Shown here piece by piece: positions 1 through 12,616 of a DNA stretch of 12,616 nucleotides (its first letter is position 1; each line of letters begins with the position of its first letter). The notes under the pieces were generated by a model that searched no databases, was not told the DNA's origin, and worked only from the letters and a program-made list of their open reading frames with translations. The stretch comes from a virus (taxonomy: Duplodnaviria; Heunggongvirae; Uroviricota; Caudoviricetes): positions 1-12,616 of the IMG/VR virus record IMGVR_UViG_2609459844_000008, one strand, 5' to 3'. The position numbers were made by a program, and so were the translations under genes.

Positions 1-471
1 CAGTTTTTTGGCAATATGTAAGCCCTGGCCGACACAGCCGTACTGCCCTTTGCTCAGGTCTGCCTTCGGATGATTCAGCGTACTCATATCCTGCACATCA
101 TGCAGACAGTGGTCAGCCGGGATGATGTCGTTATACGTACAACTCTCTCCACCCGGAGTTACCGTGCTGCGGCGCGCCAGCTGTTTAATGCGCGGATCCG
201 GAGCATCGTAAGAATCCGGTAACGGAAGCCCTTCACCGTAGGCCATGCCGTTGGACTGTCCGGCAAGCACAACCACGTAGAACCAGTCCGGCTCAGATGA
301 AGGGCCGACCTGTGGATCTCCTTCAATAGCCACCGCCTGCATCAGTGTGTACGGCGTAATGGCAACCGGTCCGCCATATGGCTGCCAGCCCTCTTTCAGT
401 TTGTGTGTCAGCTTTTCCGCAAGGTCTGACGGCGACGCCGCCCTGACAACATCATAGTGTTTAAATGCCAT
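1..471 (-). CDS. Sialate O-acetylesterase NanS-p-like protein, N-terminal 157 codons only (gene continues past the window start)
   Basis: Manual translation of the minus strand from ATG at 471..469 gives MAFKHYDVVRAASPSDLAEKLTHKLKEGWQPYGGPVAITPYTLMQAVAIEGD..., then ...VVVLAGQSNGMAYGEG... (GQSN motif of SGNH/DUF303 esterases). SD GGAGG 5 nt upstream. Resemblance to the DUF1737 N-terminus of Stx-phage 933W L0105-type esterases is from memory, not searched. Frame stays open to position 1. Confidence 0.7.
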   Translation of the reverse strand, partial: MAFKHYDVVRAASPSDLAEKLTHKLKEGWQPYGGPVAITPYTLMQAVAIEGDPQVGPSSEPDWFYVVVLAGQSNGMAYGEGLPLPDSYDAPDPRIKQLARRSTVTPGGESCTYNDIIPADHCLHDVQDMSTLNHPKADLSKGQYGCVGQGLHIAKKL

Positions 472-665
472 GAATCCTCCCGGCCGGGATAATATTGTGA
501 GTAAAATGAGGAGCGGGCTGAAGTCCGGAAGTTACAGGACAATGGCAGAAGAGAGACAATAGCCCGCAATACGAAAAAGGCCGCGCTATTGCGCAGAGTG
601 ATTACTGTCGGATATTATTCGCCAGCTGAAATATTACTTCACGTTTTGTTGTTTATTCCTTGCCG

Positions 666-693
666 CCCGCGTCTCCCTGCGCGGGATTTTTTT
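666..693 (+). terminator. Candidate intrinsic terminator (plus strand)
   Basis: 6-bp GC stem CCCGCG(666-671)/CGCGGG(680-685), 8-nt loop, followed by A then seven T (687-693). No plus-strand ORF lies upstream of it. Confidence 0.45.
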
Positions 694-696
694 GTC

Positions 697-724
697 CATA
701 AGAAAGCCCCTCCGGAGAGGGGCT
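697..724 (-). terminator. Candidate intrinsic terminator (minus strand), back to back with the previous hairpin
   Basis: Perfect 8-bp stem AGCCCCTC(705-712)/GAGGGGCT(717-724) with CGGA loop; on the minus strand it is followed by UUCUUAU (interrupted U tract), so strength is uncertain. Confidence 0.35.
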
Positions 725-920
725 GGAGAGTGGCGCTATGTGCCATTGCATGGTGCCGGGTGCCTCCCGGTGAATTCAGTACCAGCACCTGAATCCGCGA
801 TTATCCCATATACCTACTCGCTGATTGCCCCTCCGCACAGGGGGATTCACCATGCCAGTTTCTTTTAACAAACTCCCCGCAAAACAGACAACTGTCAACC
901 GTCTGAATTGTGAGACATTT

Positions 921-945
921 AAAAAAAAGGCCCGCAAAAGCGAGC
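921..945 (-). terminator. Intrinsic terminator closing the tRNA cluster
   Basis: On the minus strand: hairpin GCUCGC-UUUU-GCGGGC (one G-U pair) from plus 930-945, followed directly by eight U (plus A-run 921-928), ~15 nt past the 3' CCA of the last tRNA. Confidence 0.65.
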
Positions 946-960
946 AAGGGAAAATAAGTG

Positions 961-1037
961 TGGCGCGTTGTACTGGATTCGAACCAGTGACCGATTGCTT
1001 AGAAGGCAATTGCTCTGTCCGGCTGAGCTAACAACGC
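961..1037 (-). tRNA. argO: tRNA-Arg, anticodon UCU (reads AGA), 77 nt with encoded CCA
   Basis: Hand-folded cloverleaf of the reverse complement: acceptor GCGTTGT/ACAACGC, D-stem GCTC/GAGC, anticodon stem ATTGC/GCAAT with loop CTTCTAA, T-arm ACTGG-TTCGAAT-CCAGT, discriminator G, CCA. Symbol is by positional analogy to the ileZ-argN-argO cluster of Stx phages and is tentative. Confidence 0.85.
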
Positions 1038-1050
1038 AGGGTACAGATAA

Positions 1051-1127
1051 TGGACCGCCATCGAGGACTCGAACCCCGCGCAACCAGCTTCGAAGGCTGG
1101 CGCTCTATCCTGATGAGCTAATGGCGG
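1051..1127 (-). tRNA. argN: tRNA-Arg, anticodon UCG (reads CGA), 77 nt with encoded CCA
   Basis: Hand-folded: acceptor CCGCCAT/ATGGCGG (C1-G72), D-stem GCTC/GAGC, anticodon stem CCAGC/GCTGG with loop CTTCGAA, T-arm CGGGG-TTCGAGT-CCTCG (one G-U), discriminator U, CCA. Symbol tentative. Confidence 0.8.
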
Positions 1128-1134
1128 TATGTGA

Positions 1135-1206
1135 TGGTGGCCCTTGCTGGATTTGAACCAGCGACCTGGCGATTATGAGTCGCTCTCACCACTGAGCTAA
1201 AGGGCC
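1135..1206 (-). tRNA. ileZ: tRNA-Ile2 (lysidine)/Met-type tRNA, anticodon CAU, only 72 nt; anticodon stem appears truncated (possible pseudo-tRNA)
   Basis: Acceptor GGCCCTT/AAGGGCC, D-arm GCTC-AGTGGTGA-GAGC, T-arm GCTGG-TTCAAAT-CCAGC, loop CTCATAA and CCA are all recognisable. Only 2 nt (GA) separate the D-stem from the anticodon loop where 6 are expected; compared with E. coli ileX as I recall it, about 4 nt of the 5' anticodon-stem strand are missing. Confidence 0.6.
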
Positions 1207-1215
1207 GGGAGCCGC

Positions 1216-1244
1216 ATAATAACGACGCGTAATTAATTCTTCAA
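1216..1244 (-). promoter_or_regulatory. Candidate sigma70 promoter for the tRNA cluster
   Basis: Minus strand reads TTGAAG (1244..1239), a 17-nt spacer, then TATTAT (1221..1216). Predicted start is 2-3 nt upstream of the mature 5' end of the first tRNA (1206), consistent with a short RNase P-processed leader. Confidence 0.5.
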
Positions 1245-1368
1245 TATCATCCGTTCTGGCTGACTAAATCCTGTACTTCCCGAACCGTCTGCTCAAAACA
1301 TTCAGTCTCCAGCTCAACGCCAATTGCACGACGCCCGAGCGCCAGTGCTGCTTTGACGCTACGGACAT

Positions 1369-1397
1369 AAAAAAGCCAGCCACTGGGGGAGGCTGGC
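1369..1397 (-). terminator. Candidate intrinsic terminator (minus strand) upstream of the tRNA promoter
   Basis: Perfect 7-bp stem GCCAGCC(1375-1381)/GGCTGGC(1391-1397), 9-nt loop; on the minus strand followed by six U (plus A-run 1369-1374). Confidence 0.55.
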
Positions 1398-1580
1398 GAA
1401 ACTCGTAGAGCAAAAGTGTTGTTACACTAACTTCGTCACAGGATTATCCTGCAATACTCAAAATACACAATATTTACAAAACTAATAGTATACAAGGCGA
1501 TCTTTAAGATTTTGTTATAAATTATTGCCTTTCTCCTCTTTCCATGAGCTTTCTGGGTAGCCACAGAATTCCGGGTACAG

Positions 1581-1604
1581 AAAAACCCGCTCAGCGGCGG
1601 GTTT
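1581..1604 (-). terminator. Candidate intrinsic terminator (minus strand)
   Basis: Stem CCCGC(1586-1590)/GCGGG(1597-1601), extendable with A-T pairs to 8 bp, 6-nt loop; on the minus strand followed by UUUUUCUG. Confidence 0.45.
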
Positions 1605-2031
1605 AAGCTGTGTGACGAAGTAACCACTCTTAACAGCATAACCAATTTTTTACGTACGTAAACCACTAAATGATATTTGCGAGAATGCTACCGAGTATTG
1701 AAAACACCACTACAAATACATAAGCAAATCTCAACAAATAACCAACAAATAATTTCCAGTGTTATTTTTAGCCGGTTTAAATTGAACCTTCAAATTATAG
1801 AGCACTTATAAATAACAGCCGTTAATATAAATTGGCTAATAGATTTATTTTTATTCAGCCAAGAGCCATGAATAGGATTCGATAGAAAAAAGTTCAGATA
1901 AAAATAGAGATCTACTTCACAAATCAAACGAGAAACCAAAACTAACATCTTGAAATAATCACATTGATTAGATGAATATTTATCGCGCAGTGACATCATT
2001 TTTTAATAATAGTTCAAAAAAAGGGCTCACG

Positions 2032-3114
2032 ATGAAAAAATTAACAGTGGCAATTTCTGCTGTAGCTGCATCAGTACTGATGGCGATGTCTGCTCAGGCA
2101 GCTGAAATTTATAATAAAGACAGTAACAAGCTGGATCTGTACGGGAAAGTTAATGCTAAGCACTATTTCTCCTCTAATGATGCAGATGATGGTGATACTA
2201 CTTATGCCCGTCTTGGCTTCAAAGGTGAAACCCAAATCAACGATCAACTGACTGGTTTCGGTCAGTGGGAATATGAATTCAAAGGCAACCGCGCTGAATC
2301 TCAAGGTTCCTCCAAAGATAAAACCCGTCTTGCCTTCGCTGGCCTGAAATTCGGTGACTACGGCTCAATCGATTACGGCCGTAACTACGGTGTAGCATAC
2401 GACATCGGTGCGTGGACTGACGTTCTGCCAGAATTCGGTGGCGATACCTGGACCCAAACAGATGTGTTCATGACTGGTCGCACCACTGGTGTTGCAACTT
2501 ATCGTAACAACGACTTCTTTGGTCTGGTTGATGGTCTGAACTTTGCTGCTCAGTATCAGGGTAAAAATGACCGCACTGACGTAACTGAAGCTAATGGTGA
2601 TGGTTTCGGTTTCTCCACTACTTATGAGTATGAAGGATTCGGTGTAGGTGCAACCTATGCTAAATCTGACCGCACTAATAATCAGGTTATCTACGGTAAC
2701 AACAGCCTGAATGCATCTGGTCAAAATGCTGAAGTATGGGCAGCTGGTCTGAAATATGATGCGAACAACATCTATCTGGCTACCACCTATTCTGAACCCC
2801 AGAACATGACTGTTTTTGGTAATAACCATATTGCCAACAAAGCACAAAACTTCGAAGTAGTTGCACAATATCAGTTCGACTTCGGTCTGCGTCCGTCCGT
2901 TGCTTACCTGCAATCTAAAGGAAAAGACTTGGGTGCGTGGGGTGATCAGGACCTGGTTGAATATATTGATGTAGGTGCAACCTATTACTTCAACAAAAAT
3001 ATGTCCACTTTTGTTGATTACAAAATCAACCTGATTGATAAGAGCGATTTCACGAAAGCATCTGGCGTTGCTACCGATGATATCGTTGCTGTAGGTATGG
3101 TTTACCAGTTCTAA
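2032..3114 (+). CDS. Outer-membrane general porin, OmpC/OmpF superfamily, closest in character to OmpD/NmpC/Lc prophage porins (360 aa)
   Basis: Start taken at the internal ATG 2032 with SD AAGGG 6 nt upstream, not the 1972 ATG. Signal peptide [23 protein letters not shown] then [16 protein letters not shown]; characteristic porin motifs ([44 protein letters not shown]) and C-terminal ...VAVGMVYQF ending in Phe. TAA stop 3112-3114. Confidence 0.95.
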
Positions 3115-3138
3115 TTTGATTACTAAAAGATATGTTGC

Positions 3139-3157
3139 GGGGGGGTTTGCCTCCCCC
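3139..3157 (-). other. GC hairpin between the Q-like gene and the porin 3' end; weak terminator candidate on the minus strand
   Basis: G-run 3139-3145 pairs with C-run 3153-3157 around a 7-nt loop; on the minus strand it is followed by GCAACAUAUCUUUU (U tract displaced ~8 nt), so terminator function is doubtful. Confidence 0.3.
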
Positions 3158-3250
3158 ACATATAAGAGGCTCCCTCAAGCCACTTCCTTTAGGAGCACAA
3201 CCTTGCTTCTAACTATATAAACCTTCTGTTATATATTACCCTTTATTTTT

Positions 3251-3280
3251 GGGGGCGTTGCAACGCCCCATTTTTAATAA
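3251..3280 (+). terminator. Intrinsic terminator of the porin gene
   Basis: Perfect palindrome GGGGCGTTGCAACGCCCC (3252-3269) followed on the plus strand by ATTTTTAATAATTTTT. Confidence 0.6.
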
Positions 3281-3302
3281 TTTTTAGTAAACAATTGGCA
3301 TA

Positions 3303-3686
3303 TTAATTAGAGTTATTAACAACGATATCCATCTCTAACCGGATATCTAATGCCATTAACATCCCTTCAATTATGCCCTCAGCCTTCTGTAACCTTTTCC
3401 CGATATAACCATCAGAGCAGCAATGCTTACCTGCCAGTGACATGAATGTCATACCGACTACATAATAATCTACTAATAAATCGTGCAAATCGCTGTTGTT
3501 CTTTTTCAGACGGGCCATGCACCCGCAAATAATCATCGCGTCATCGTCACAACATTGCGGGCGAGATTTTACTTTTGAAGTAATTAATCCCTTAAAACCG
3601 GCGGCAATGGACGACCAGGTCACATCTTCATGATTATTAGCCGCCCACGCTCCCCAGCGTTCGAGAACCATCTGAATATCACGCAT
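3303..3686 (-). CDS. Late-gene antiterminator Q-like protein (QuuD/DLP12-type, 127 aa)
   Basis: Start moved from the TTG at 3701 to ATG 3686..3684, which has SD GGAG 7 nt upstream. Product [24 protein letters not shown]...[16 protein letters not shown]... matches my recollection of the DLP12 QuuD-type Q protein. Last gene of the minus-strand operon, convergent with the porin gene. Confidence 0.8.
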
Positions 3687-3703
3687 CAACTTTCTCCACA
3701 AAA

Positions 3704-4723
3704 TCAGGACAGCACACCAATCGCCAGCGCGCGATCGATAAAACGAAATATCAGCTCCAGTTGGGAACCATACTTCTCTTCAAATGCCACGGTATCCGCA
3801 TGTAGTTCGTCATGGTGTTTTCTGCACAAAGGCAACACAAAAAGGTCATGCGCTTTTGTACCCATTCCACCCTGACCATGACCAATCAGGTGATGAGGAT
3901 CGTCGGCTGGCTTACCACAACATGCACACGGCTGCGTCTTAACCCAGCGCGTGTACTTTTCATTAACCCAGCGACGACGTTTTGGGCGTAACATAAAAGA
4001 CTCCGGCGACTCCGGATCCACTTTCAGCGCCAGCACCTTTTTCGCTTTATCCTGGATGATGCTGGTGGCAGGAACCGAAGGCACAAGGTCACTTTCCCGG
4101 GTGACAGACGGCACAACAGGCTTCGGTAATCTCAGTGCCTTACGGGCTGCACTTTCCGGTAAGGCATCCGCCAGGTCATTACGAATCAGCCACCAGCACA
4201 GTTCCGGCATTGTCACAACGTGACTGTCATCAAAACCGAGATCCCGACGCACAACAGACAACACCCAGCGGGCACAGTTATCCGTTGCCATTGATTCCAG
4301 CCGTTCCGTGAACTGATCGCGCAGCTGGTTATCGCAGTGCCAGCACAGACGGATTGCACCCGGAGCGTGTCGCATTGTGGTCATGTTCTCGCTGTGCCAG
4401 TCGGAATGAGGCCACTGGCAGCCTTTTTCACGAAGTAACCAGCTTTCAAGACATTCCACGCCACCAGCACGACGGATCACTGCCTCATTGCGGAACACGG
4501 CCCGAACGGCAGGATCATCCGCCAGCGGTTGTGATGCCGCCGGAACGGCACCACTGGCGAAAGATGAATAACGTTCCGGCTCAGGCTCCAGCAGGACACG
4601 CCCCTGCATAAACAGGGGCATCAGCTCTGAACCGGGCCTGAACAATACAATCCCCATACGCGGGGCAATTTCAGGGGTCAGCAGTGCTCTCACGGTCACC
4701 TCAGCAAACGATATTGAATGCAT
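3704..4723 (-). CDS. nin-region protein, DUF968/YdfU-like, with a C-terminal HNH-like Cys/His motif (339 aa)
   Basis: ATG 4723..4721 with no strong SD. C-terminus ...[45 protein letters not shown] has the CxxC...HH...GG...C..HH spacing of HNH nucleases. Family name recalled, not searched. Confidence 0.7.
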
Positions 4724-4744
4724 ACAGAGAAAAAAACTCAGTCA

Positions 4745-5002
4745 TCACGCAGTAAACTCCTTCACCAGTATTTCAAACTGGCTTACCTGTCCTTCCAGTT
4801 CCTCCACGCAATCCACCAGCTCATCCACCGCCTTTTGTGTACGGTGTTTTGCCTGCAGCAGATCACGAAGCGCCGGAGTAAGCTGCTTGCGGAGCGTATC
4901 TTTTGCCACGCTCGTTTTTTCCATCTGTTCAGCACAACGAAGCATCTCCTGCGCCTGCCGACGAAGTTGTTCCGGTGAAACAGTGATTGTTCTGTTGTTC
5001 AA
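4745..5002 (-). CDS. Hypothetical small protein (85 aa), predicted helical/coiled-coil
   Basis: TTG start at 5002..5000 overlapping the DnaB-like TGA (TTGA), with GGAG 9 nt upstream. No recognised domain. Confidence 0.5.
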   Translation of the reverse strand: MNNRTITVSPEQLRRQAQEMLRCAEQMEKTSVAKDTLRKQLTPALRDLLQAKHRTQKAVDELVDCVEELEGQVSQFEILVKEFTA

Positions 5003-6399
5003 AATAAACGCTCCGTTTTACTGCCCGACATGCGGTTATTGCTGTATCTGCGCGGATTGCCCGGCGTCATGGGTGTGGAAAGAACCCGGGCACTCTCCTG
5101 ATCCACAGGCAGAAAATGCCCGTTATGAAAACGCCGGTAAATGGTACCCAGCGTGCCATTACGCTGTTTCGTGATGTTGATTTCTGCTATGCCTCTGGCC
5201 TGAGTTTCCGGGTTGTATACCTCATCCCTGTAAAGCATCAGAATGATGTCGGCATCCGCCTCGATTTCCCCGGAGTTTTTCAGGTCCGAGTTCATTGGGC
5301 GTTTATTGGGTCTGGATTCCACGCCGCGGGAGAGCTGGCTCAGAGCAATCAGCGGAAAACCGCCGGATTTTGCCAGGCTTTTAAGTCCCTTTGAGATTTC
5401 CCCCACCGCAAGGTCGTGACGCCCCGTGCTGCGGGTTTTAATCAGGCCGAGGTAATCGACCACCACCAGCGCCGTTTCCGGGTGTTTCATCCGGTGGTGC
5501 TTCGTGGTTGCACATATCTCATCAATGGTCAGGTTTGCCTGGTCCACCATCCAGATATTACGCCCCGTCATTCGTCCCACGCCCTGCGTGAAACGCGCCC
5601 AGTCTTCATCTTCAAAACGGGCAACAGACTTAAGACGGGATACCGGCATTCCACCGGCAGCAGACACCATACGTTCACCAATCTGGATGTTCGCCATCTC
5701 CATGGTGAACAGAAGCACGCCATGCCCCTGCTCAGTCACCTTGTCGATGATGTCCAGCGCAAGTTCGGTTTTCCCCATCGAAGGACGGGCGGCAATGAAT
5801 ACCAGGTCTCCGGGCTCCATACCGCCCGTTTTTGCGTCCAGTTCATCAATACCGGTCATCAGCGCCCTGGATTTCTCCAGTCCCTGATTGCGGCATTCAA
5901 CACGGTCGACCACTTCCGGAAGGACATCATCAATGTGAACCGGCTGAATGACGCCCTTTCCGGTCGACAGTGAGGCCATCATGTTCTGCGCATCCTTCAG
6001 GGCATCCTCGGCTGCTTCACAGGTATACGCATCACGTAAATTCTGTAATGCTTCAGTCAGTGTTTTTTCTGCATCGCGCAGTGCGGCATTGCGCCGCAAC
6101 GCTGCGACATAGTGCTCCAGTGAAGACTTCACCCAGGTTTTGCGTCCGGTGTCGGTAATCACCGGGGCAAGTTCCGGCATCTCATTGCACAGCAGTACGG
6201 GGTCAATGACGCCGGATATGCGAGCCTGTCTGCAAATCCCCGCGTAAATATCCCGGTACTGACGCACAAAAAATACATCCGCCGGAAGTGTGGCCAGAAT
6301 ATCCATCACTTCCGGATCGGCCCCACGCAGAAAAAACGCACCGATGACAGCGCCTTCCAGGTCATCGTTACGCCATGCCGGGGTGTTCTGGCTGGTCAT
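4999..6399 (-). CDS. Replicative DNA helicase, DnaB family (466 aa, phage-encoded)
   Basis: ATG 6399..6397 overlaps the upstream stop (ATGA); SD GGAGG upstream. Walker A AARPSMGKTELALD and Walker B LVVVDYLGL, typical DnaB N- and C-domain sequence. Confidence 0.95.
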   Translation of the reverse strand: MTSQNTPAWRNDDLEGAVIGAFFLRGADPEVMDILATLPADVFFVRQYRDIYAGICRQARISGVIDPVLLCNEMPELAPVITDTGRKTWVKSSLEHYVAALRRNAALRDAEKTLTEALQNLRDAYTCEAAEDALKDAQNMMASLSTGKGVIQPVHIDDVLPEVVDRVECRNQGLEKSRALMTGIDELDAKTGGMEPGDLVFIAARPSMGKTELALDIIDKVTEQGHGVLLFTMEMANIQIGERMVSAAGGMPVSRLKSVARFEDEDWARFTQGVGRMTGRNIWMVDQANLTIDEICATTKHHRMKHPETALVVVDYLGLIKTRSTGRHDLAVGEISKGLKSLAKSGGFPLIALSQLSRGVESRPNKRPMNSDLKNSGEIEADADIILMLYRDEVYNPETQARGIAEINITKQRNGTLGTIYRRFHNGHFLPVDQESARVLSTPMTPGNPRRYSNNRMSGSKTERLF

Positions 6400-7295
6400 G
6401 CGGCAACACCTCCGATACGAGAACGGTAGCTGGGCCAGTTAAACGACAACCAGTTGCGCCCGCCATCGGTGATCCTGTCGGCAATCCGGGGACTGATGAA
6501 CGCCCACAATTCTTCCGGTGAAAGGTTGCTGATCAGGATAGTTGGCAAAATACCCTCATACCGGGCATTGATAATTTCCTGCAAAATGGCCATTTCAGCC
6601 GCACTGCCAAACTGAACGCCGACTTCGTCGACAATCAGCAAATCCAGTGACGCATAATGCTCAATGACGTCATCCGCTGTTTTTTCACTGTCATTCCGCC
6701 AGCAGTTTTTCACAGCCCGGGTAAGGCGCATCACGTCGGTGATCTCCACACTGGCCAGATAGTTACGGATGATGTGTTTTGCCATTGATACCGCCAGATG
6801 ATTTTTCCCGGTACCGCAACTGCCGGTCATAACAATACTGGTACCGTTCTCCAGCATATCTGGCCAGTTCTCCGCATAGCGGCGACAGGCCGCAAGATTT
6901 CTGGCTGCGTCAGGATTAACCTCCAGATAATTATCAAACTCGCAGTCCCGAAAACGCAGAGCAATTCCGGCGTTATCAGTCAGTTCTTCCGCCTTGAGGG
7001 ACGACAGTTCCATGGTCAAATCACTGGCCTCAGCGATCAAGCAGTCAGGGCAGCATGAAATTTTTTCTCTGTCCTCGCCATTACGATCGATCCACACCAG
7101 TATATGCGTACGATATTTACCGTGTTTTTCGCAATATCCGCGATCTTCACGCATCAGGCAGGAACGATAAGGCCATGGCTTTTCGCCCTTCTGAGCAAAT
7201 GCAATCTCTGCCCGTAACTCATCCATTTCTGCCCGTAACTCATCCATTCGCGCCTGTAGTCTTGTTTGTTTCTCACGTTGGTCAATCGTCATCAT
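6396..7295 (-). CDS. DnaC-like helicase loader, IstB-type AAA+ ATPase (about 299 aa)
   Basis: Walker A GSCGTGKNHLAVSMAK and Walker B LLIVDEVG. The longest ORF starts at GTG 7304; ATG 7295..7293 is preferred because GAGGT sits 7 nt upstream. The N-terminus contains a perfect 7-aa duplication (MDELRAE x2). Confidence 0.9.
   Translation of the reverse strand: MMTIDQREKQTRLQARMDELRAEMDELRAEIAFAQKGEKPWPYRSCLMREDRGYCEKHGKYRTHILVWIDRNGEDREKISCCPDCLIAEASDLTMELSSLKAEELTDNAGIALRFRDCEFDNYLEVNPDAARNLAACRRYAENWPDMLENGTSIVMTGSCGTGKNHLAVSMAKHIIRNYLASVEITDVMRLTRAVKNCWRNDSEKTADDVIEHYASLDLLIVDEVGVQFGSAAEMAILQEIINARYEGILPTILISNLSPEELWAFISPRIADRITDGGRNWLSFNWPSYRSRIGGVAA
7207..7248. repeat. Perfect 21-bp tandem duplication (2 copies) inside the DnaC-like gene
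   Basis: TCTGCCCGTAACTCATCCATT at 7207-7227 and again at 7228-7248; in frame, encoding MDELRAE twice. Confidence 0.9.
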
Positions 7296-7305
7296 CGCTG
7301 TCACC

Positions 7306-8298
7306 TCAGAATGTCAATTTGTTACTGGATTTACCGAATTTGTCAGACATGGCTCCCAGGCCAGCCAGGACATCGACCTGTCGCTGTCGCCCACCTCCGT
7401 GAGCGGCTGGCTGTTGCCAGTAATCTTCGAAGTGACGATCGGGTCCAAAGAACGTCGCAGCCTGCTTCACGAACTGTGTGCCGGTATTTCCTGTAGCACG
7501 TACCCAGGCGGCATACCGCTTCACGCCATCAAGCATGGTCTCCGGTTTTATTCCCTCCCTGATACGGGCTTTCCAGGCTTTGAAGGCTGCTGACTTGGAA
7601 TTGCCACCAGCACGTTTGGGATATTCCTGCCAGGCCTGTTCAAATTCCGGTGAATATTCCTGTCGGGCAGAACGCGCTGGCGCAGACGCGTCAGCGGATG
7701 CATCAATAGTGTTTTTAGTCTCCGTTGTAATCTCTGTAGTAATCTCTGTATTTGTATCAACATTCGGCGTATCCCCTGTTCCGTTATGACGTCGGGGGGT
7801 GTTCCGTTTTAACGTAATAGCTGTATCGCTGATTGCATTATTGCTGTTACTTTCTGGCGAAACAGAAGAAGGTGTGGTGATGGCCGCAATTGCCTGTGGG
7901 TTGATCCCGACAAACAAAATATTGCTGCATTTCACCCCATCGAGCATTTCCACCGTGCGTAAATCCAGAGTAATAAACCCTGTATCGCGCAGACGCTTCA
8001 GCGCATCTGCGGTTTCCCTTTTCCCGAAACCAAACTGCTCAGCAAACGCCTGGTAGCTTCTTTGCAGTTTGTCGCCCTGAAAACGCTTGCGATATCCCAG
8101 CAACGCTCCGGTGTGCTCATCCCTGACCTCTGTCGGGCGGTACCAGTAAACGATCTCTGAAAGCAGAGCGATAGCCGTCGCATCCGGACGCCCACTGGGT
8201 AGTCGAATATATTTCCACCAGTTCGCAGGTGTAACATTGCCGGAAATATTAATTTGACCAATAGCCATAACTTCCGGTGTGGGGGCGTAACGGCTCAT
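7306..8298 (-). CDS. Phage replication initiator / replisome organiser, lambda O-like (330 aa)
   Basis: ATG 8298 with SD AAGGAGG upstream. N-terminal domain and C-terminal region (EYSPEFEQAWQEYPKRAGG...AAWVRATGNTG...) separated by a low-complexity T/E/I/S-rich linker; sits directly upstream of the loader and helicase genes. Confidence 0.85.
   Translation of the reverse strand: MSRYAPTPEVMAIGQINISGNVTPANWWKYIRLPSGRPDATAIALLSEIVYWYRPTEVRDEHTGALLGYRKRFQGDKLQRSYQAFAEQFGFGKRETADALKRLRDTGFITLDLRTVEMLDGVKCSNILFVGINPQAIAAITTPSSVSPESNSNNAISDTAITLKRNTPRRHNGTGDTPNVDTNTEITTEITTETKNTIDASADASAPARSARQEYSPEFEQAWQEYPKRAGGNSKSAAFKAWKARIREGIKPETMLDGVKRYAAWVRATGNTGTQFVKQAATFFGPDRHFEDYWQQPAAHGGGRQRQVDVLAGLGAMSDKFGKSSNKLTF
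7727..7750. repeat. 12-bp direct repeat, 2 tandem copies, in the linker-coding part of the O-like gene
   Basis: GTAATCTCTGTA at 7727-7738 and 7739-7750, encoding TEITTEIT, with degenerate related sequence on both sides. Confidence 0.8.
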
Positions 8299-8594
8299 AC
8301 AACCTCCTTCCGCGGCATGAGAATTGTGTAGCCACGCGCAGGTTGTAGTCTGGCTTTTGCATCAATAGTAAGCGTTGCAATTTTTCGGATATGAAGATAA
8401 CCAGCTCTTTCCAGTGCCAGGGTTTCCCTGAATATCGCTTGCTTAGAACAACAGCAGAAATCAGCAAGCACCTGATGATCAATAACTCTCTCGCCTTCAC
8501 CGTCTGAAGAACCCGACATCAAAACACGCAACATAACCAGGCGCTGAATCGGGTTATCGAAAGCACATCCGCACACAAACTGAAAACAGTTCAC
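8295..8594 (-). CDS. Hypothetical protein (99 aa), possible winged-helix DNA-binding fold
   Basis: GTG start overlapping the upstream stop (GTGA); stop overlaps the O-like ATG (ATGA). Segment VLADFCCCSKQAIFRETLALERAGYLHIRK resembles a recognition helix and wing. Start codon uncertain. Confidence 0.55.
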   Translation of the reverse strand: MNCFQFVCGCAFDNPIQRLVMLRVLMSGSSDGEGERVIDHQVLADFCCCSKQAIFRETLALERAGYLHIRKIATLTIDAKARLQPARGYTILMPRKEVV

Positions 8595-8815
8595 GCCACA
8601 CCTCCCAGACGCTTAAACATTTTTCCAGACAGAAATACCGCCAGAGGGTAACTGATGGTGTAGCTACGCCCCTGTAGTTCGCACACGACTTTCTGGCTTT
8701 CAGCGTTGACCAGGCAAACCCGCAGAACGTGACCGTTGCTGGTGGCGAACCACTGCCCCACACGGGGGCAACGGTTGTATCGGTGATACAGGGAATTAAC
8801 GATGTGGCGGATCAT
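8591..8815 (-). CDS. Hypothetical protein (74 aa)
   Basis: ATG 8815 with SD GGAGGTG 7 nt upstream; 4-nt overlaps with both neighbours. Confidence 0.6.
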   Translation of the reverse strand: MIRHIVNSLYHRYNRCPRVGQWFATSNGHVLRVCLVNAESQKVVCELQGRSYTISYPLAVFLSGKMFKRLGGVA

Positions 8816-9006
8816 GGATGCACCTCCGCCGTAGTTACGTATTTAACCGGGCTACCTTTCATTGAGATGGTTTCACACATCTCTGCCGCTTTCAGTTCCG
8901 CTGTTTTTCTGGATTTATAGCGACGGTGCCAGACAGATACATCCGTGCGAACTGATACATCGTTTCTGTATTCCGTAGTGGAGATGATGATTTCGTAACT
9001 AATCAT
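8812..9006 (-). CDS. Hypothetical protein (64 aa)
   Basis: ATG 9006 with SD AAGGAGG upstream; ATGA overlap with the Rha-like stop. Confidence 0.6.
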   Translation of the reverse strand: MISYEIIISTTEYRNDVSVRTDVSVWHRRYKSRKTAELKAAEMCETISMKGSPVKYVTTAEVHP

Positions 9007-9554
9007 GGGCGAACCTCCTTGTCAGAACCATTCAGCCTGGAATCAACAAGTGCAGCGCCAAAAACAGCATCACCAACACGGTCGTACAGTTTGCTAGCCA
9101 GCGGAGATTCAATGGCCTTAAGCATTGGATAAAGCTGGCTTGTCCAGATTTGATGGATTTCACGCAAATGCAGGTATACGCCTCTGGCGTTTCGTGCGAC
9201 AGCTGACATATCAACCGCGTCAGCACCAGATAAATTCTTCTCCATCTGGTTAAAGGCGTTGATGTATGCCTCTTTGAACCGGGCTGCACGTTTGCCAGTA
9301 AAGCCCATAGCAAGGAACGCGAAGCCATCACGGGTGATTTGATAGCAAGGTAGTTTGCGGCCTGTGCAATCGGTGTAATCACTCACCGAAAAATTGCGGG
9401 CAGTGAATGATGCGGAGCATTCAAGCGTGCGGATCTTTTTCAGTACATCGTCATGACGCTTGGAGAAGAAGTTGGCAACAGCCAGGGATGAAGTAACAGC
9501 CTGACCATCAACGATGGCAATTTCAGGTTGAGTGAGGGTTGGGATCGTAGCCAT
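9003..9554 (-). CDS. Phage regulatory protein Rha family (183 aa)
   Basis: Start set at the internal ATG 9554..9552 with SD GGAGG 8 nt upstream; the 100-codon extension up to 9854 has no RBS and is low-complexity. Product has Rha hallmarks: FSKRHDDVLKKIR, YQITRDGFAFLAMGFTGKRAARFKEAYINAFNQME. Confidence 0.8.
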   Translation of the reverse strand: MATIPTLTQPEIAIVDGQAVTSSLAVANFFSKRHDDVLKKIRTLECSASFTARNFSVSDYTDCTGRKLPCYQITRDGFAFLAMGFTGKRAARFKEAYINAFNQMEKNLSGADAVDMSAVARNARGVYLHLREIHQIWTSQLYPMLKAIESPLASKLYDRVGDAVFGAALVDSRLNGSDKEVRP

Positions 9555-9938
9555 GATGGCAGCCTCCGTTGACTGTGGAAAACTTCCACCACCGGAGCTG
9601 CGAAACTCACTGGTGGCAGACTGAACAGGGTTCGCAGTACCGGCGTCAACGGAGACCGGCGAGCCTTTCGGCTCCCCTGCCCAGCCCACCATAATTCTGG
9701 CGTGCGTGAGCGCGGACGATAAAAAAGACGCTGGCGCGTCATATATCGCCGTTGACAATTCCGGGCTGCGACCCCCGGCACCCGCTTTATAAGGTGCAGA
9801 GACAGTGTAACGTCCCGAAATTGCAGAATCAATATTTGGTCTTGAAATGATCATATAGCTGCTGATATCTTTAGAACTGTTCTTGGATGTTTCGGAGCCG
9901 TTTTATGCGAAACAGCTCCCCGTTATTGATGTTGAGTG

Positions 9939-9963
9939 AGCCGGGTTACTCCCGGCTTTTTTT
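9939..9963 (+). terminator. Strong intrinsic terminator on the plus strand with no plus-strand gene upstream
   Basis: Perfect 7-bp stem AGCCGGG(9939-9945)/CCCGGCT(9951-9957), loop TTACT, then seven T through 9963. It abuts the stop codon (9965..9963) of the minus-strand gene; on the minus strand it is preceded by A and not followed by U. Confidence 0.6.
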
Positions 9964-10358
9964 CACCGCTGCCAACCAATAACCTGAAATAACCCCATTT
10001 TCGGGTGATACCAGCGAGTCCCTCGCGGTTCTGCTTCCTCCATAACCCGATAAAAAGCAGCCATAAACGGTTCCACAGCAACAATTGCGCGACGTGACAA
10101 CAATCCGTCCGGCGTCATGAACTCATGTGTGTCTGTAGGAATTTGATAGGCGTTCACCAGATTGCGGCATTTATCATCTGACAAACCGGTTTTTGCTTTC
10201 AGTTGGCGATATCCGGCATAGCCCTCACGAATAGTGCCCTTTTTAATTTGCTCGACTGTTTCAGCAACGTGGCTGACTTTTTCTTCCACCTGAGTGATCC
10301 GTTTCTGCTGACGAACTGCTTCAAGAGCCATCGCGGCAACCATTTCGATTTCGCTCAT
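9963..10358 (-). CDS. Hypothetical prophage protein (131 aa); first gene of the minus-strand block
   Basis: ATG 10358 has no convincing SD. The frame is stop-free for 53 more codons upstream (to TGA at 10520..10518) but contains no ATG/GTG/TTG. No recognised domain. Confidence 0.55.
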   Translation of the reverse strand: MSEIEMVAAMALEAVRQQKRITQVEEKVSHVAETVEQIKKGTIREGYAGYRQLKAKTGLSDDKCRNLVNAYQIPTDTHEFMTPDGLLSRRAIVAVEPFMAAFYRVMEEAEPRGTRWYHPKMGLFQVIGWQR

Positions 10359-10520
10359 TGGCTTACGGATCTGTTCTTCCAGTTCGCGCCAGCGATCTAC
10401 CAGGCGAGCAGTGAATTCAGGACAGAGCTGTGCGACGACAATGATGCTGTCGCGCTTAACTCCGGATGGTTGGATAAGCTGTAGTGAGCGAATGCCGGAC
10501 GACAGGCAGGAGGTGAATCA

Positions 10521-10622
10521 ATGAGCTGGCCTGATGCAATCGTAACTCTGGGGGGTGGTATTCGCAGCAGCGTTTGTTGTGTTCTCGATTTGTCGATGGG
10601 GATAACCACATGTTCGCTTTGA
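10521..10622 (+). CDS. Candidate small ORF (33 aa) with a strong RBS, overlapping the start of the next gene; possible leader/upstream ORF
   Basis: AGGAGGTGA at 10508-10516, ATG 10521; product MSWPDAIVTLGGGIRSSVCCVLDLSMGITTCSL; TGA 10620-10622 overlaps the downstream ATG at 10610 out of frame. Below the size cut of the ORF track. Confidence 0.3.
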   Translation: MSWPDAIVTLGGGIRSSVCCVLDLSMGITTCSL

Positions 10623-10852
10623 TTCAACGCGGTCAGATATACACGGACAGAGCCGGATACCCCGTGGTGATTACTCGCATCACTGAGCACTCAGTGTTCT
10701 TTCGACGGATGGACGGACGATCCGGGCGGGTACGCATTGGTGAGTTAAACTGCCTGTTCGAACATATTGACCACCAGGAGTACCGCAAAATTCTCGCGGA
10801 CACTGAGCAGGAAAAGCACCTGAAAAAATTACGAGCCATAAAAAGGAAGTAA
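10610..10852 (+). CDS. Hypothetical small prophage protein (80 aa)
   Basis: Internal ATG 10610 preferred over the TTG at 10574. Product MFALIQRGQIYTDRAGYPVVITRITEHSVFFRRMDGRSGRVRIGELN...; TAA at 10850-10852. Confidence 0.6.
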   Translation: MFALIQRGQIYTDRAGYPVVITRITEHSVFFRRMDGRSGRVRIGELNCLFEHIDHQEYRKILADTEQEKHLKKLRAIKRK

Positions 10853-10855
10853 AGA

Positions 10856-11002
10856 ATGAATAAAGCATTTGAACGATGGGTCCACCAGCGTTACGGCAAT
10901 CGCTATTACCTGACGCGAGATGTTGACGGCTTCTACTGTCGTGAAGTTGTGAAGCGAATGTTTGAAGTGTGGTGCCACTGCCGTGGGCTGAGTGTTGTGT
11001 GA
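10856..11002 (+). CDS. Candidate small protein (48 aa) with a C-terminal Cys/His cluster
   Basis: ATG 10856 three nt after the upstream stop, with AGGAAG 4 nt upstream (short spacing, probably coupled). Product MNKAFERWVHQRYGNRYYLTRDVDGFYCREVVKRMFEVWCHCRGLSVV; TGA 11000-11002 lies 8 nt before the next ATG. Not in the ORF track. Confidence 0.45.
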   Translation: MNKAFERWVHQRYGNRYYLTRDVDGFYCREVVKRMFEVWCHCRGLSVV

Positions 11003-11010
11003 GGTAATAC

Positions 11011-11247
11011 ATGGGCAATGTGATTCAACTGGCTCCCAATGAATGGGTTTGTGAAAGCGTTCTTATCGCAATTACCGGGCTCAAACCAGGCACAATTCTT
11101 CGGGCCCGGAAAGAATGCTGGATGGTTGGAAGAGAGTATATTCACGTATCACCAGACGGTAATCCAAAGCCTTCCAGTGAATGTATGTATAACAGAAAAG
11201 CAATAGATGCCTGGGTCGCCTCAATGAAAAACAAACAACCCAGGTGA
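11011..11247 (+). CDS. Excisionase-like small DNA-binding protein (78 aa)
   Basis: ATG 11011 with GAGG 6 nt upstream; immediately upstream of and co-oriented with the integrase. Resemblance to prophage excisionase-like proteins is from memory. Confidence 0.65.
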   Translation: MGNVIQLAPNEWVCESVLIAITGLKPGTILRARKECWMVGREYIHVSPDGNPKPSSECMYNRKAIDAWVASMKNKQPR

Positions 11248-11302
11248 TTTAATATCATGAAATATGTAAGCTCGTATCGCTCTTGGGCGTCTGGAGGTAT
11301 CG

Positions 11303-12616
11303 ATGGATAAAGTCAAATATCCAACAGGCGTCGAAAACCACGGCGGCACATTACGCATCTGGTTTAATTTTAAAGGTAAACGTGTCAGGGAAAATCTTGG
11401 TGTCCCTGACACTGCCAAGAACAGGAAGATCGCCGGGGAACTGCGGACATCAGTATGTTTTGCCATCCGCACAGGAAGCTTTGATTATGCTGCACAGTTC
11501 CCTGACTCCCCCAACCTTCAGGCTTTTGGGGTAAGTAAAAAAGAAATTACGGTGAAGGAACTTGAAGAAAAGTGGCTGGATCTGAAACGAATGGAAATCT
11601 CTGCAAATGCATTCAATCGCTATGAATCCGTTGCAAGAACGATGGCTCCGAAAATTGGAGGCAGTAGACTGGTGTCATCGGTAACCAAAGAGGAATTGCT
11701 GTATATCAGGAAAGATTTGCTTACCGGGTATCAGAATTCAACGAAAAACAAAGCAGCAGCAAAAGGACGGAGCGTCGTTACTGTAAATTATTACATGACG
11801 ACAATCGCTGGAATGTTTCAGTTTGCTGCAGATCACGGTTACTTAGAAGCAAATCCCTTCCAGGGAATTAAGCCTCTTAAAAGAGCCAGGGCAGAGCCAG
11901 ATCCGCTAACTCGTGACGAATTTATTCGCCTGATAGATGCTTGCCGACATCAGCAGACGAAAAACCTGTGGTCATTGGCTGTGTACACAGGAATGCGTCA
12001 CGGTGAACTGGTCTCCCTGGCCTGGGAAGATATCGATCTGAAGGCAGGAACAATTACCATCAGGCGCAATTATACGAAACTTGGTGAGTTCACTCTACCG
12101 AAAACTGAAGCAAGCACAAACAGGGTTGTGCACCTTATCCAGCCCGCTATCAGTGTCCTGAAAAATCAGGCTGAAATGACAAGACTGGGTAAGCAGTACA
12201 ACATCAAGGTGCAACTACGTGAATATGGACGTTCAGTGAACCATGAATGTACTTTCGTGTTTAACCCTCAAGTGGTTAGAAAAAGCGAACAGGTAGGTTT
12301 TGTCTACAAAGTCGATTCTGTAGGTGACTCATGGGAAACAGCCATTAAGCGTGCAGGGATCAGGCATCGAAAGGCATACCAGTCACGACACACTTATGCG
12401 TGCTGGTCATTATCTGCCGGAGCAAACCCAAGCTTCATTGCCAGCCAGATGGGCCATGCAAGTGCCCAGATGGTATTCAATGTATACGGAGCATGGATGA
12501 CTGACAGCAATGCAGAACAGATCGCAATGCTGAATCAGAAGCTGACAGATTATGTCCCAATGATGCCCCATAGTCACCAAAGTGACACCAGAGGCTTATT
12601 AAAATCAGTAAGTTAA
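11303..12616 (+). CDS. int: Tyrosine site-specific recombinase / phage integrase (437 aa)
   Basis: ATG 11303 with SD GGAGGT at 11293-11298. C-terminal catalytic domain with ...YTGMRHGELVSLAWEDIDL... (Arg), ...RHTYACWSL... (His-x-x-Arg) and ...MGHASAQMVFNVYGAW... (His and Tyr). TAA at 12614-12616. Overall resemblance to Stx-phage 933W-type integrases is recalled, not tested. Confidence 0.95.
   Translation: MDKVKYPTGVENHGGTLRIWFNFKGKRVRENLGVPDTAKNRKIAGELRTSVCFAIRTGSFDYAAQFPDSPNLQAFGVSKKEITVKELEEKWLDLKRMEISANAFNRYESVARTMAPKIGGSRLVSSVTKEELLYIRKDLLTGYQNSTKNKAAAKGRSVVTVNYYMTTIAGMFQFAADHGYLEANPFQGIKPLKRARAEPDPLTRDEFIRLIDACRHQQTKNLWSLAVYTGMRHGELVSLAWEDIDLKAGTITIRRNYTKLGEFTLPKTEASTNRVVHLIQPAISVLKNQAEMTRLGKQYNIKVQLREYGRSVNHECTFVFNPQVVRKSEQVGFVYKVDSVGDSWETAIKRAGIRHRKAYQSRHTYACWSLSAGANPSFIASQMGHASAQMVFNVYGAWMTDSNAEQIAMLNQKLTDYVPMMPHSHQSDTRGLLKSVS

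Follow-up and report, generated by a model that had tools for sequence, protein, structure and literature searches.

A convergent sRNA gene pair beside an unoccupied toxin site in the late operon of a Stx-phage-like sequence

What lies between a tRNA cluster and a nanS-p-like esterase gene when the toxin genes that Stx2 phages carry there are missing? The question is raised by a 12,616-nt sequence assigned to the Caudoviricetes (IMG/VR record IMGVR_UViG_2609459844_000008, positions 1 to 12,616; the whole stretch is referred to here as the window), in which the two are separated by a spacer at positions 473-960. The initial annotation described this spacer as gene-free and as an unoccupied or vacated cargo site. 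The comparisons presented below indicate that it very probably belongs to a lambdoid Escherichia coli prophage that resembles Stx phages and represents a standard non-coding module of its late operon, almost identical to the one in Sakai prophage Sp4. The module holds a convergent pair of genes for Hfq-binding sRNAs, which is well documented and occurs in about one-fifth of complete E. coli genomes. All elements of the spacer are already known from the literature, including the placement of sRNA dyads at the moron site in lambdoid prophages, and since every element has been described before, the finding is an ordinary one. It serves as a reminder that the intergenic stretches between Q and the lysis genes of lambdoid prophages are not to be read as empty, as Hfq-dependent sRNAs are found there. 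Among the relatives of these sRNAs, AsxR modulates haem uptake and AgvB amino-acid transport, and EcOnc27/sRNA103 possibly acts on virulence genes.

Setting of the spacer in the late operon

The features of the region are listed in Table 1. Phage late transcription runs along the minus strand, and the spacer ends at the 5' part of an esterase gene whose start codon occupies 471-469 on that strand, just where it had been placed initially, with a Shine-Dalgarno sequence GGAGG at 480-476. The N-terminus of the product matches DUF1737 (1.8e-16), the annotation at an E. coli locus of 97.9% identity is that of a SASA-family carbohydrate esterase, and the gene is 98.1% identical to ECs_1088 of Sakai Sp4. 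The Sp4 locus has the same layout, with the tRNA genes ileZ1-argN1-argO1, a spacer of the same length (488 bp), ECs_1088 and an empty stx slot. Over window positions 1-1209 the alignment with Sp4 shows 98.1% identity. Within the spacer there are only six substitutions in 488 positions, and this is the extent to which the window differs from the copy on which the published experiments discussed below were carried out.

The region upstream of the spacer is of the Stx-phage type. The product of the antiterminator Q gene (PF06530, 4e-53) is 78% identical by BLASTP to Q of the Stx2 phage Sp5, and the leader that follows is 82% identical to the region of VT1-Sakai annotated as late promoter, Q-utilisation site and terminators and 83% identical to the Q-to-tRNA interval of Sp5. 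The backbone of Q, tRNA cluster and esterase recognised in the initial annotation is thus that of Stx phages, although Q does not adjoin the tRNA genes, as had been assumed: a full-length porin gene (Porin_1, 1.5e-152) and the pR'-tR' leader intervene. This porin gene is presumably placed like nmpC in DLP12, on the opposite strand between Q and the pR' leader. The Q-porin-pR'-tRNA arrangement was found entire, at an identity of at least 99%, in three complete E. coli genomes only. Between the leader and the tRNA genes, at 1207-1357 on the minus strand, only the 3' end is left of a DNA methyltransferase gene of relatives (79-89% identical), and the homology runs on into the pR' leader. Upstream of the tRNA genes, the sequence has therefore been rearranged with respect to both Sp4 and the AR_0372 type; Sp4 carries a gene for an AraC-family regulator there, whereas the window has the methylase remnant, the pR' leader and the porin gene.

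The tRNA cluster is of the ileZ-argN-argO type. Relative to Sakai Sp4, Sp5 and AR_0372, its ileZ-type tRNA has lost 4 nt of the D-arm, which correspond to one GAGC of a GAGCGAGC repeat. With this deletion, ARAGORN reports a 72-nt tRNA-Met and the Rfam score falls from 72.5 to 58 bits, and the tRNA may be non-functional.

Table 1. Features in and around the spacer, with window coordinates
Feature	Position	Strand	Evidence
nanS-p-like (SASA-family) esterase gene, 5' part	1-471	-	DUF1737 match; annotated relatives
Promoter-like site for the plus-strand RNA	465-493	+	sequence scan
EcOnc08/21/42-type Hfq-binding sRNA	528-693	+	published probe; Sp4 CRAC peaks; terminator
Terminator-like hairpin, CTGCGCAATAGCGCGG + CCTTTTTCG	575-596	-	terminator scan (596-581 and T-run)
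TTGCGC, 18-nt spacer, TATTAT (613-618); possible promoter	589-618	+	inferred from sequence
STnc100-family sRNA gene (EcOnc05 in Sakai Sp4)	694-884	-	Rfam RF02076; EcOnc05 probe
Empty cargo (moron) junction	914-923		one blastn indel; base-level flanks; no stx remnants
Intrinsic terminator closing the tRNA cluster	921-945	-	terminator scan; base-level comparison of flanks
ileZ-argN-argO-type tRNA cluster	961-1206	-	ARAGORN; Rfam; alignment
tRNA-Arg(tct)	961-1037	-	ARAGORN
tRNA-Arg(tcg)	1051-1127	-	ARAGORN
CAT-anticodon tRNA, ileZ type	1135-1206	-	ARAGORN
Promoter-like site before the tRNA cluster	1244-1216	-	promoter scan
pR' late promoter, qut site and two tR' hairpins (StxS-type leader)	1360-1663	-	alignment with VT1-Sakai and Sp5
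OmpC/NmpC-like porin gene, full length	1972-3114	+	Porin_1
Antiterminator Q gene	3303-3701	-	PF06530; BLASTP

The convergent sRNA pair

At least eight Sakai prophages have been described to carry a dyad of Hfq-binding sRNAs at the moron site, which lies between pR' and the lysis genes; the reason for the dyad arrangement has been called unclear (PMC4104026; review PMC7873438). Both RNAs of the Sp4 dyad are made and bound by Hfq, as shown by CRAC and northern blotting (Tree et al., 2014, Table S2 of PMC4104026). In the window, the terminator scan recovers the hairpins reported initially with correct coordinates, namely the one that closes the tRNA cluster (minus 945-930 and T-run) and the convergent pair inside the spacer (plus 666-685 and T-run; minus 724-705). 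The accompanying statement that the spacer is free of genes and holds nothing else does not stand. The Rfam match, the published probes and the comparison with Sp4 show that two convergent sRNA genes are encoded here, both hairpins are the 3' ends of these genes, and there is a fourth hairpin too.

The minus-strand gene is of the STnc100 type. The match to RF02076 scores 139.2 bits, where the gathering score is 47, has E = 1e-32 and covers the full length of the model (positions 1-206), with the hairpin at 724-705 and its U-tail as the terminator. The northern probe for EcOnc05 is identical in 35 of 35 positions to the plus strand at 792-826, which places the RNA on the minus strand and makes it the same element as the STnc100 match. 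In Sp4, EcOnc05 shows an Hfq crosslinking peak and a northern signal of about 222 nt, and it has the same orientation as the late operon (Tree et al., 2014; PMC4104026). It is a homologue of EcOnc27/sRNA103, which lies downstream of stx2B, and is related to PasD of EPEC E2348/69 (Zhu, Shabalina and Storz, 2026, preprint). The Rfam family has 206 consensus positions, whereas the window copy has 191 nt because its central variable region is shorter; the fold of the gene has a z-score of -1.95. The element belongs to the lambdoid late region, between pR' or the tRNA genes and nanS-p, and occupies the same place upstream of nanS-p in VT1-Sakai (Stx1), in three Stx2a phages and in the stx-negative phages Nil3, PhiR5_1 and phi296. 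If the RNA is about 222 nt long, as on the northern blot, its 5' end would lie near 916, i.e., at the cassette boundary, and the 5' end of EcOnc27 in Sp5, placed by northern size, likewise falls at that boundary. A consensus scan and inspection gave no convincing sigma-70 promoter for this gene; a conserved TTGACA at 898-893 is without a good -10 element. The centre of STnc100-type genes (about 790-815 in the window) is hypervariable in sequence and length across phages, with invariant flanking stems and with the shortest version in the window and Nil3. Judging by this pattern of variation, the centre may be a variable seed region.

On the opposite strand, the northern probe for EcOnc08/21/42 is identical to the minus strand at 619-585 (35 of 35 positions, no mismatches), so the RNA lies on the plus strand and runs into the hairpin and T-run at 666-693. 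The Hfq-CRAC peaks of Sp4 fall on window positions 528-613 and 619-691; the CRAC coordinates refer to an old Sakai record and are offset by about +137 nt at Sp5 and about 0 at Sp4, as fixed by the probe positions. In Sp4, EcOnc08/EcOnc21 is about 271 nt long, antisense, and detected both as Hfq peaks and by northern blotting; a homologue named EcOnc42 is carried by the Stx1 phage Sp15 (PMC4104026). Sp15 is 98% identical to window positions 473-777. The candidate range for the 5' end extends from about 423 to 528, with about 423 expected if the RNA is 271 nt long and about 500 if the promoter-like site ahead of the gene is used. The guessed 272-nt RNA folds no better than shuffled sequences (z = 0.09). 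An additional transcript of about 69 nt could start from the TTGCGC-N18-TATTAT motif, which corresponds in position to a TTGCGC-N18-TAAAAT motif, a likely promoter by its sequence, just upstream of AsxR in Sp5. Position 686 is A in the window and C in Sp4 and all other aligned relatives with the plus-strand cassette. The change removes the outer G-C pair of the terminator, so that GCCCGCG...CGCGGGC becomes CCCGCG...CGCGGG followed by A, and may weaken termination of the plus-strand RNA.

In other prophages the plus-strand slot holds AsxR or AgvB (PMC4104026). In Sp5, AsxR (88 bits) abuts the 3' end of the STnc100 gene (EcOnc27) in this slot, and the alignment shows that AsxR and the EcOnc08/21/42-type gene are alternative cassettes between conserved blocks. 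The window element resembles AsxR and AgvB (RF02703, RF02702) in being convergent with STnc100 and in ending with a GC hairpin followed by a U-run, but AsxR and AgvB are 51-60 nt long with a conserved 3' block of 42 nt, whereas the window element does not have this block and the published RNA measures about 271 nt. Membership in these families was rejected, as no covariance-model match was obtained at E <= 10 in 473-960 and the sequences are unrelated. A GcvB-like GU-rich seed in the plus-strand RNA, GUUUUGUUGUUU at 643-654, was likewise set aside; pairing by hand gave about seven contiguous pairs with AgvB.

The fourth hairpin, absent from the earlier list, lies about 100 nt upstream of the esterase start. 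Its stem arms and T-run are invariant in eight of eight aligned phages, including Sp5 with its different neighbouring cassette, and variation is confined to the 2-nt centre of the loop and one stem base. The TTGCGC that may act as the -35 element of the short plus-strand RNA lies on the plus strand of this block.

It is also conceivable that the spacer is transcriptionally inert except for a bidirectional terminator, and that the Sakai RNAs arise as stable by-products when read-through is terminated, without any part in regulation. This agrees with the lack of a clear STnc100 promoter in scan and inspection, with the absence of targets for EcOnc05 and EcOnc08/21/42 from the literature (review PMC7873438) and with the 5' ends of EcOnc05 and EcOnc27, which by northern size lie near the upstream cassette boundary and would fit processing of an upstream transcript. 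We nevertheless consider it quite unlikely. Salmonella and E. coli share the structure closely enough for it to define an Rfam family, in which conserved stems surround a variable region. Crosslinking to Hfq has been observed, and deletion of hfq destabilises several members, the EcOnc27 homologue among them (PMC4104026). Furthermore, AsxR and AgvB, which occupy the same slot, have demonstrated targets (PMC4104026; PMC7873438), and the relative PasD has many RIL-seq partners.

The preferred reading is that of a module with two sRNA genes. Along the minus strand, its order is tRNA terminator, moron point (about 10 nt), STnc100 gene, convergent sRNA gene, fourth hairpin, and nanS-p leader with ribosome-binding site. 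In the lysogen, each sRNA gene would use a promoter of its own, and the products would act on host RNAs in trans with the help of Hfq. The hairpins at 945-921, 724-694 and 596-575 would prevent transcription of the sRNA genes and the tRNA cluster from running on into nanS-p and the lysis genes. Once the prophage is induced, RNA polymerase modified by Q would start at pR' (1663-1635) and read through all of these terminators. From Q to nanS-p, the region thus resembles a string of self-contained modules, and every module has its own terminator.

Position and history of the toxin slot

In Stx2a phages of the Sp5/933W type the order is Q, pR'-tR', ileZ-argN-argO, stx2AB, EcOnc27 (STnc100) with AsxR, and nanS-p. 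Order and flanks are the same in the window; the tRNA side is 90.7% identical and the sRNA and esterase side 72-91%, and the STnc100 gene has the same position. The window differs in that stx2AB is missing and the partner of STnc100 is of the EcOnc08/21/42 type instead of AsxR. By blastn, window positions 364-917 and 920-1299 are collinear with the two Stx2a phages compared, in which they lie 1332 bp apart. The 1332-bp insert between 917 and 920 contains the ORFs of Stx2A (319 aa) and Stx2B (89 aa), with 50 nt ahead of the stx2A start codon and 41 nt past the stx2B stop codon. The site is therefore unoccupied, as the initial annotation proposed, and stx2AB is absent exactly where Stx2 phages have it. 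The slot, however, is not the whole stretch of about 490 bp: the single indel at 917/920 and the shared flanks reduce it to a point of about 10 nt at 914-923, beside the tRNA terminator. The remaining 445 bp or so are a non-coding module that is also found after stxB in Stx1 and Stx2 phages.

At base level, the slot sits between the T-run of the tRNA terminator and a conserved TCACAATTCAG. The terminator hairpin also precedes stx2A in Stx2 phages, and the sequences GCTCGCTTTTGCGGGCCTTTTTT (tRNA terminator) on one side and TCACAATTCAGnCnGTTGACAGTTG on the other are common to these phages and the window, which joins the two conserved flanks via TTAAATGTC. This joining sequence also occurs in the stx-negative phage phi296, with 41 nt extra at that point. 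On the Stx1 side, window positions 364-855 align with the stx1B-to-nanS-p flank of VT1-Sakai, with 98% identity over 473-777, and homology stops at 855. The similarity to the toxin-locus flanks of Stx phages is borne out. When a junction-centred probe was compared with E. coli, the matches on the tRNA side alone were Stx2a and Stx2e prophages, in which stx2A begins 91 nt past the tRNA. In the Stx2e prophage L012 (NZ_CP122588.1, porcine; positions 1404-3617), stx2e lies at the same distance from the tRNA cluster and is directly followed by holin genes, without a nanS-p esterase. Such an exact and clean insertion point for stx2 aids the typing of stx-negative relatives of Stx phages and reasoning on the gain and loss of toxin genes.

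Whether the site has been vacated is a separate matter. Of 5426 complete E. coli genomes, 993 contain the 120 nt that span the junction, in up to six copies per genome, and the relatives with 98-99.8% identity are all empty. On the tRNA flank, the best Stx phage reaches 94% identity, compared with 97.4% for a stx-less phage; from the sRNA side, the Stx2 phages that reach the junction do so at about 86%. Given that every one of the closest relatives is empty and that no Stx flank exceeds 94% identity, "unoccupied" is the fitting description and "vacated" is without support, and we conclude that the site represents a common, stable empty state.

The opposite view, that the spacer is a scar left in a descendant of an Stx2 phage by precise deletion of stx2AB, is very unlikely to be correct. 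The collinearity with Stx2 phages on either side of one clean indel would agree with it, a short ATCTG motif near both ends of the stx2 cassette could mediate a deletion, and repeated loss of stx has been offered as one possible account of toxin-less sRNA loci (Zhu et al., 2026). The junction of the window, TTTTTTTTAAATGTCTCACAATT, does not match the product predicted for deletion between the ATCTG motifs, however, and this route to the empty junction was rejected. TTAAATG(T/C)CTCACAATT is common to the junction of the window and that of phi296, a diverged and stx-negative phage. Searches for toxin remnants with blastn (word size 7) and with tblastn using the Stx1 and Stx2 subunits returned nothing but chance matches (E > 0.1), all of which lie outside the spacer, and the junction is thus clean and free of toxin fragments. 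The abundance of the same junction among complete genomes, the emptiness of all relatives of at least 98% identity and the lower identity of the Stx flanks on both sides likewise argue against precise loss.

One further idea may be put forward, namely that the sRNA dyad does more than adjoin the cargo slot. The plus-strand RNA is fully complementary to the leader of nanS-p, and also to its start codon if the 5' end lies near 423. It might act as a cis antisense brake on the expression of nanS-p and the late operon, and lambdoid phages might exchange stx cassettes by way of homology anchors formed by the tRNA terminator and the invariant blocks of the dyad. We regard this combined proposal as speculative and rather unlikely.

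Reading frames and neighbouring elements

The statement that the spacer contains no credible ORF was confirmed: all ORFs of at least 40 aa in 473-960 use TTG or GTG as start codon and share sequence with tRNA or sRNA genes, and the Pfam search of the spacer ORFs gave no match. The sole PHROG match is a 59-aa ATG ORF at 852-1031 on the plus strand (phrog_27294, E = 3e-45). This ORF was rejected as a gene. We take it for a spurious call: it runs antisense to tRNA-Arg(tct) and its terminator, in-frame stop codons interrupt it in phi296, the PhiR5 copy is truncated, and in Stx2 phages stx2AB splits it. The phrog_27294 family looks as if it were built from such calls. PGAP annotates a partial "hypothetical protein" pseudogene at about 740-865 on the plus strand, antisense to STnc100. 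That the spacer encodes at least one small protein, be it the PHROG-matched ORF, the PGAP call or one of three PHANOTATE ORFs of phi296, is extremely improbable despite these three kinds of calls, given the fate of the PHROG-matched ORF in related phages, the lack of Pfam matches, stop-free extents that vary among relatives and indels that are not multiples of three.

Further along the window, Rfam detects a C4 antisense RNA at 9609-9696 (minus strand, 78.8 bits) and isrK at 9721-9797 (minus strand, 58.7 bits), which adjoin a gene with Ash and Rha domains at 9003-9854. This locus looks like an immunity and antirepressor module of the P1/P7 c4-ant or isrK type in the early region of the prophage.
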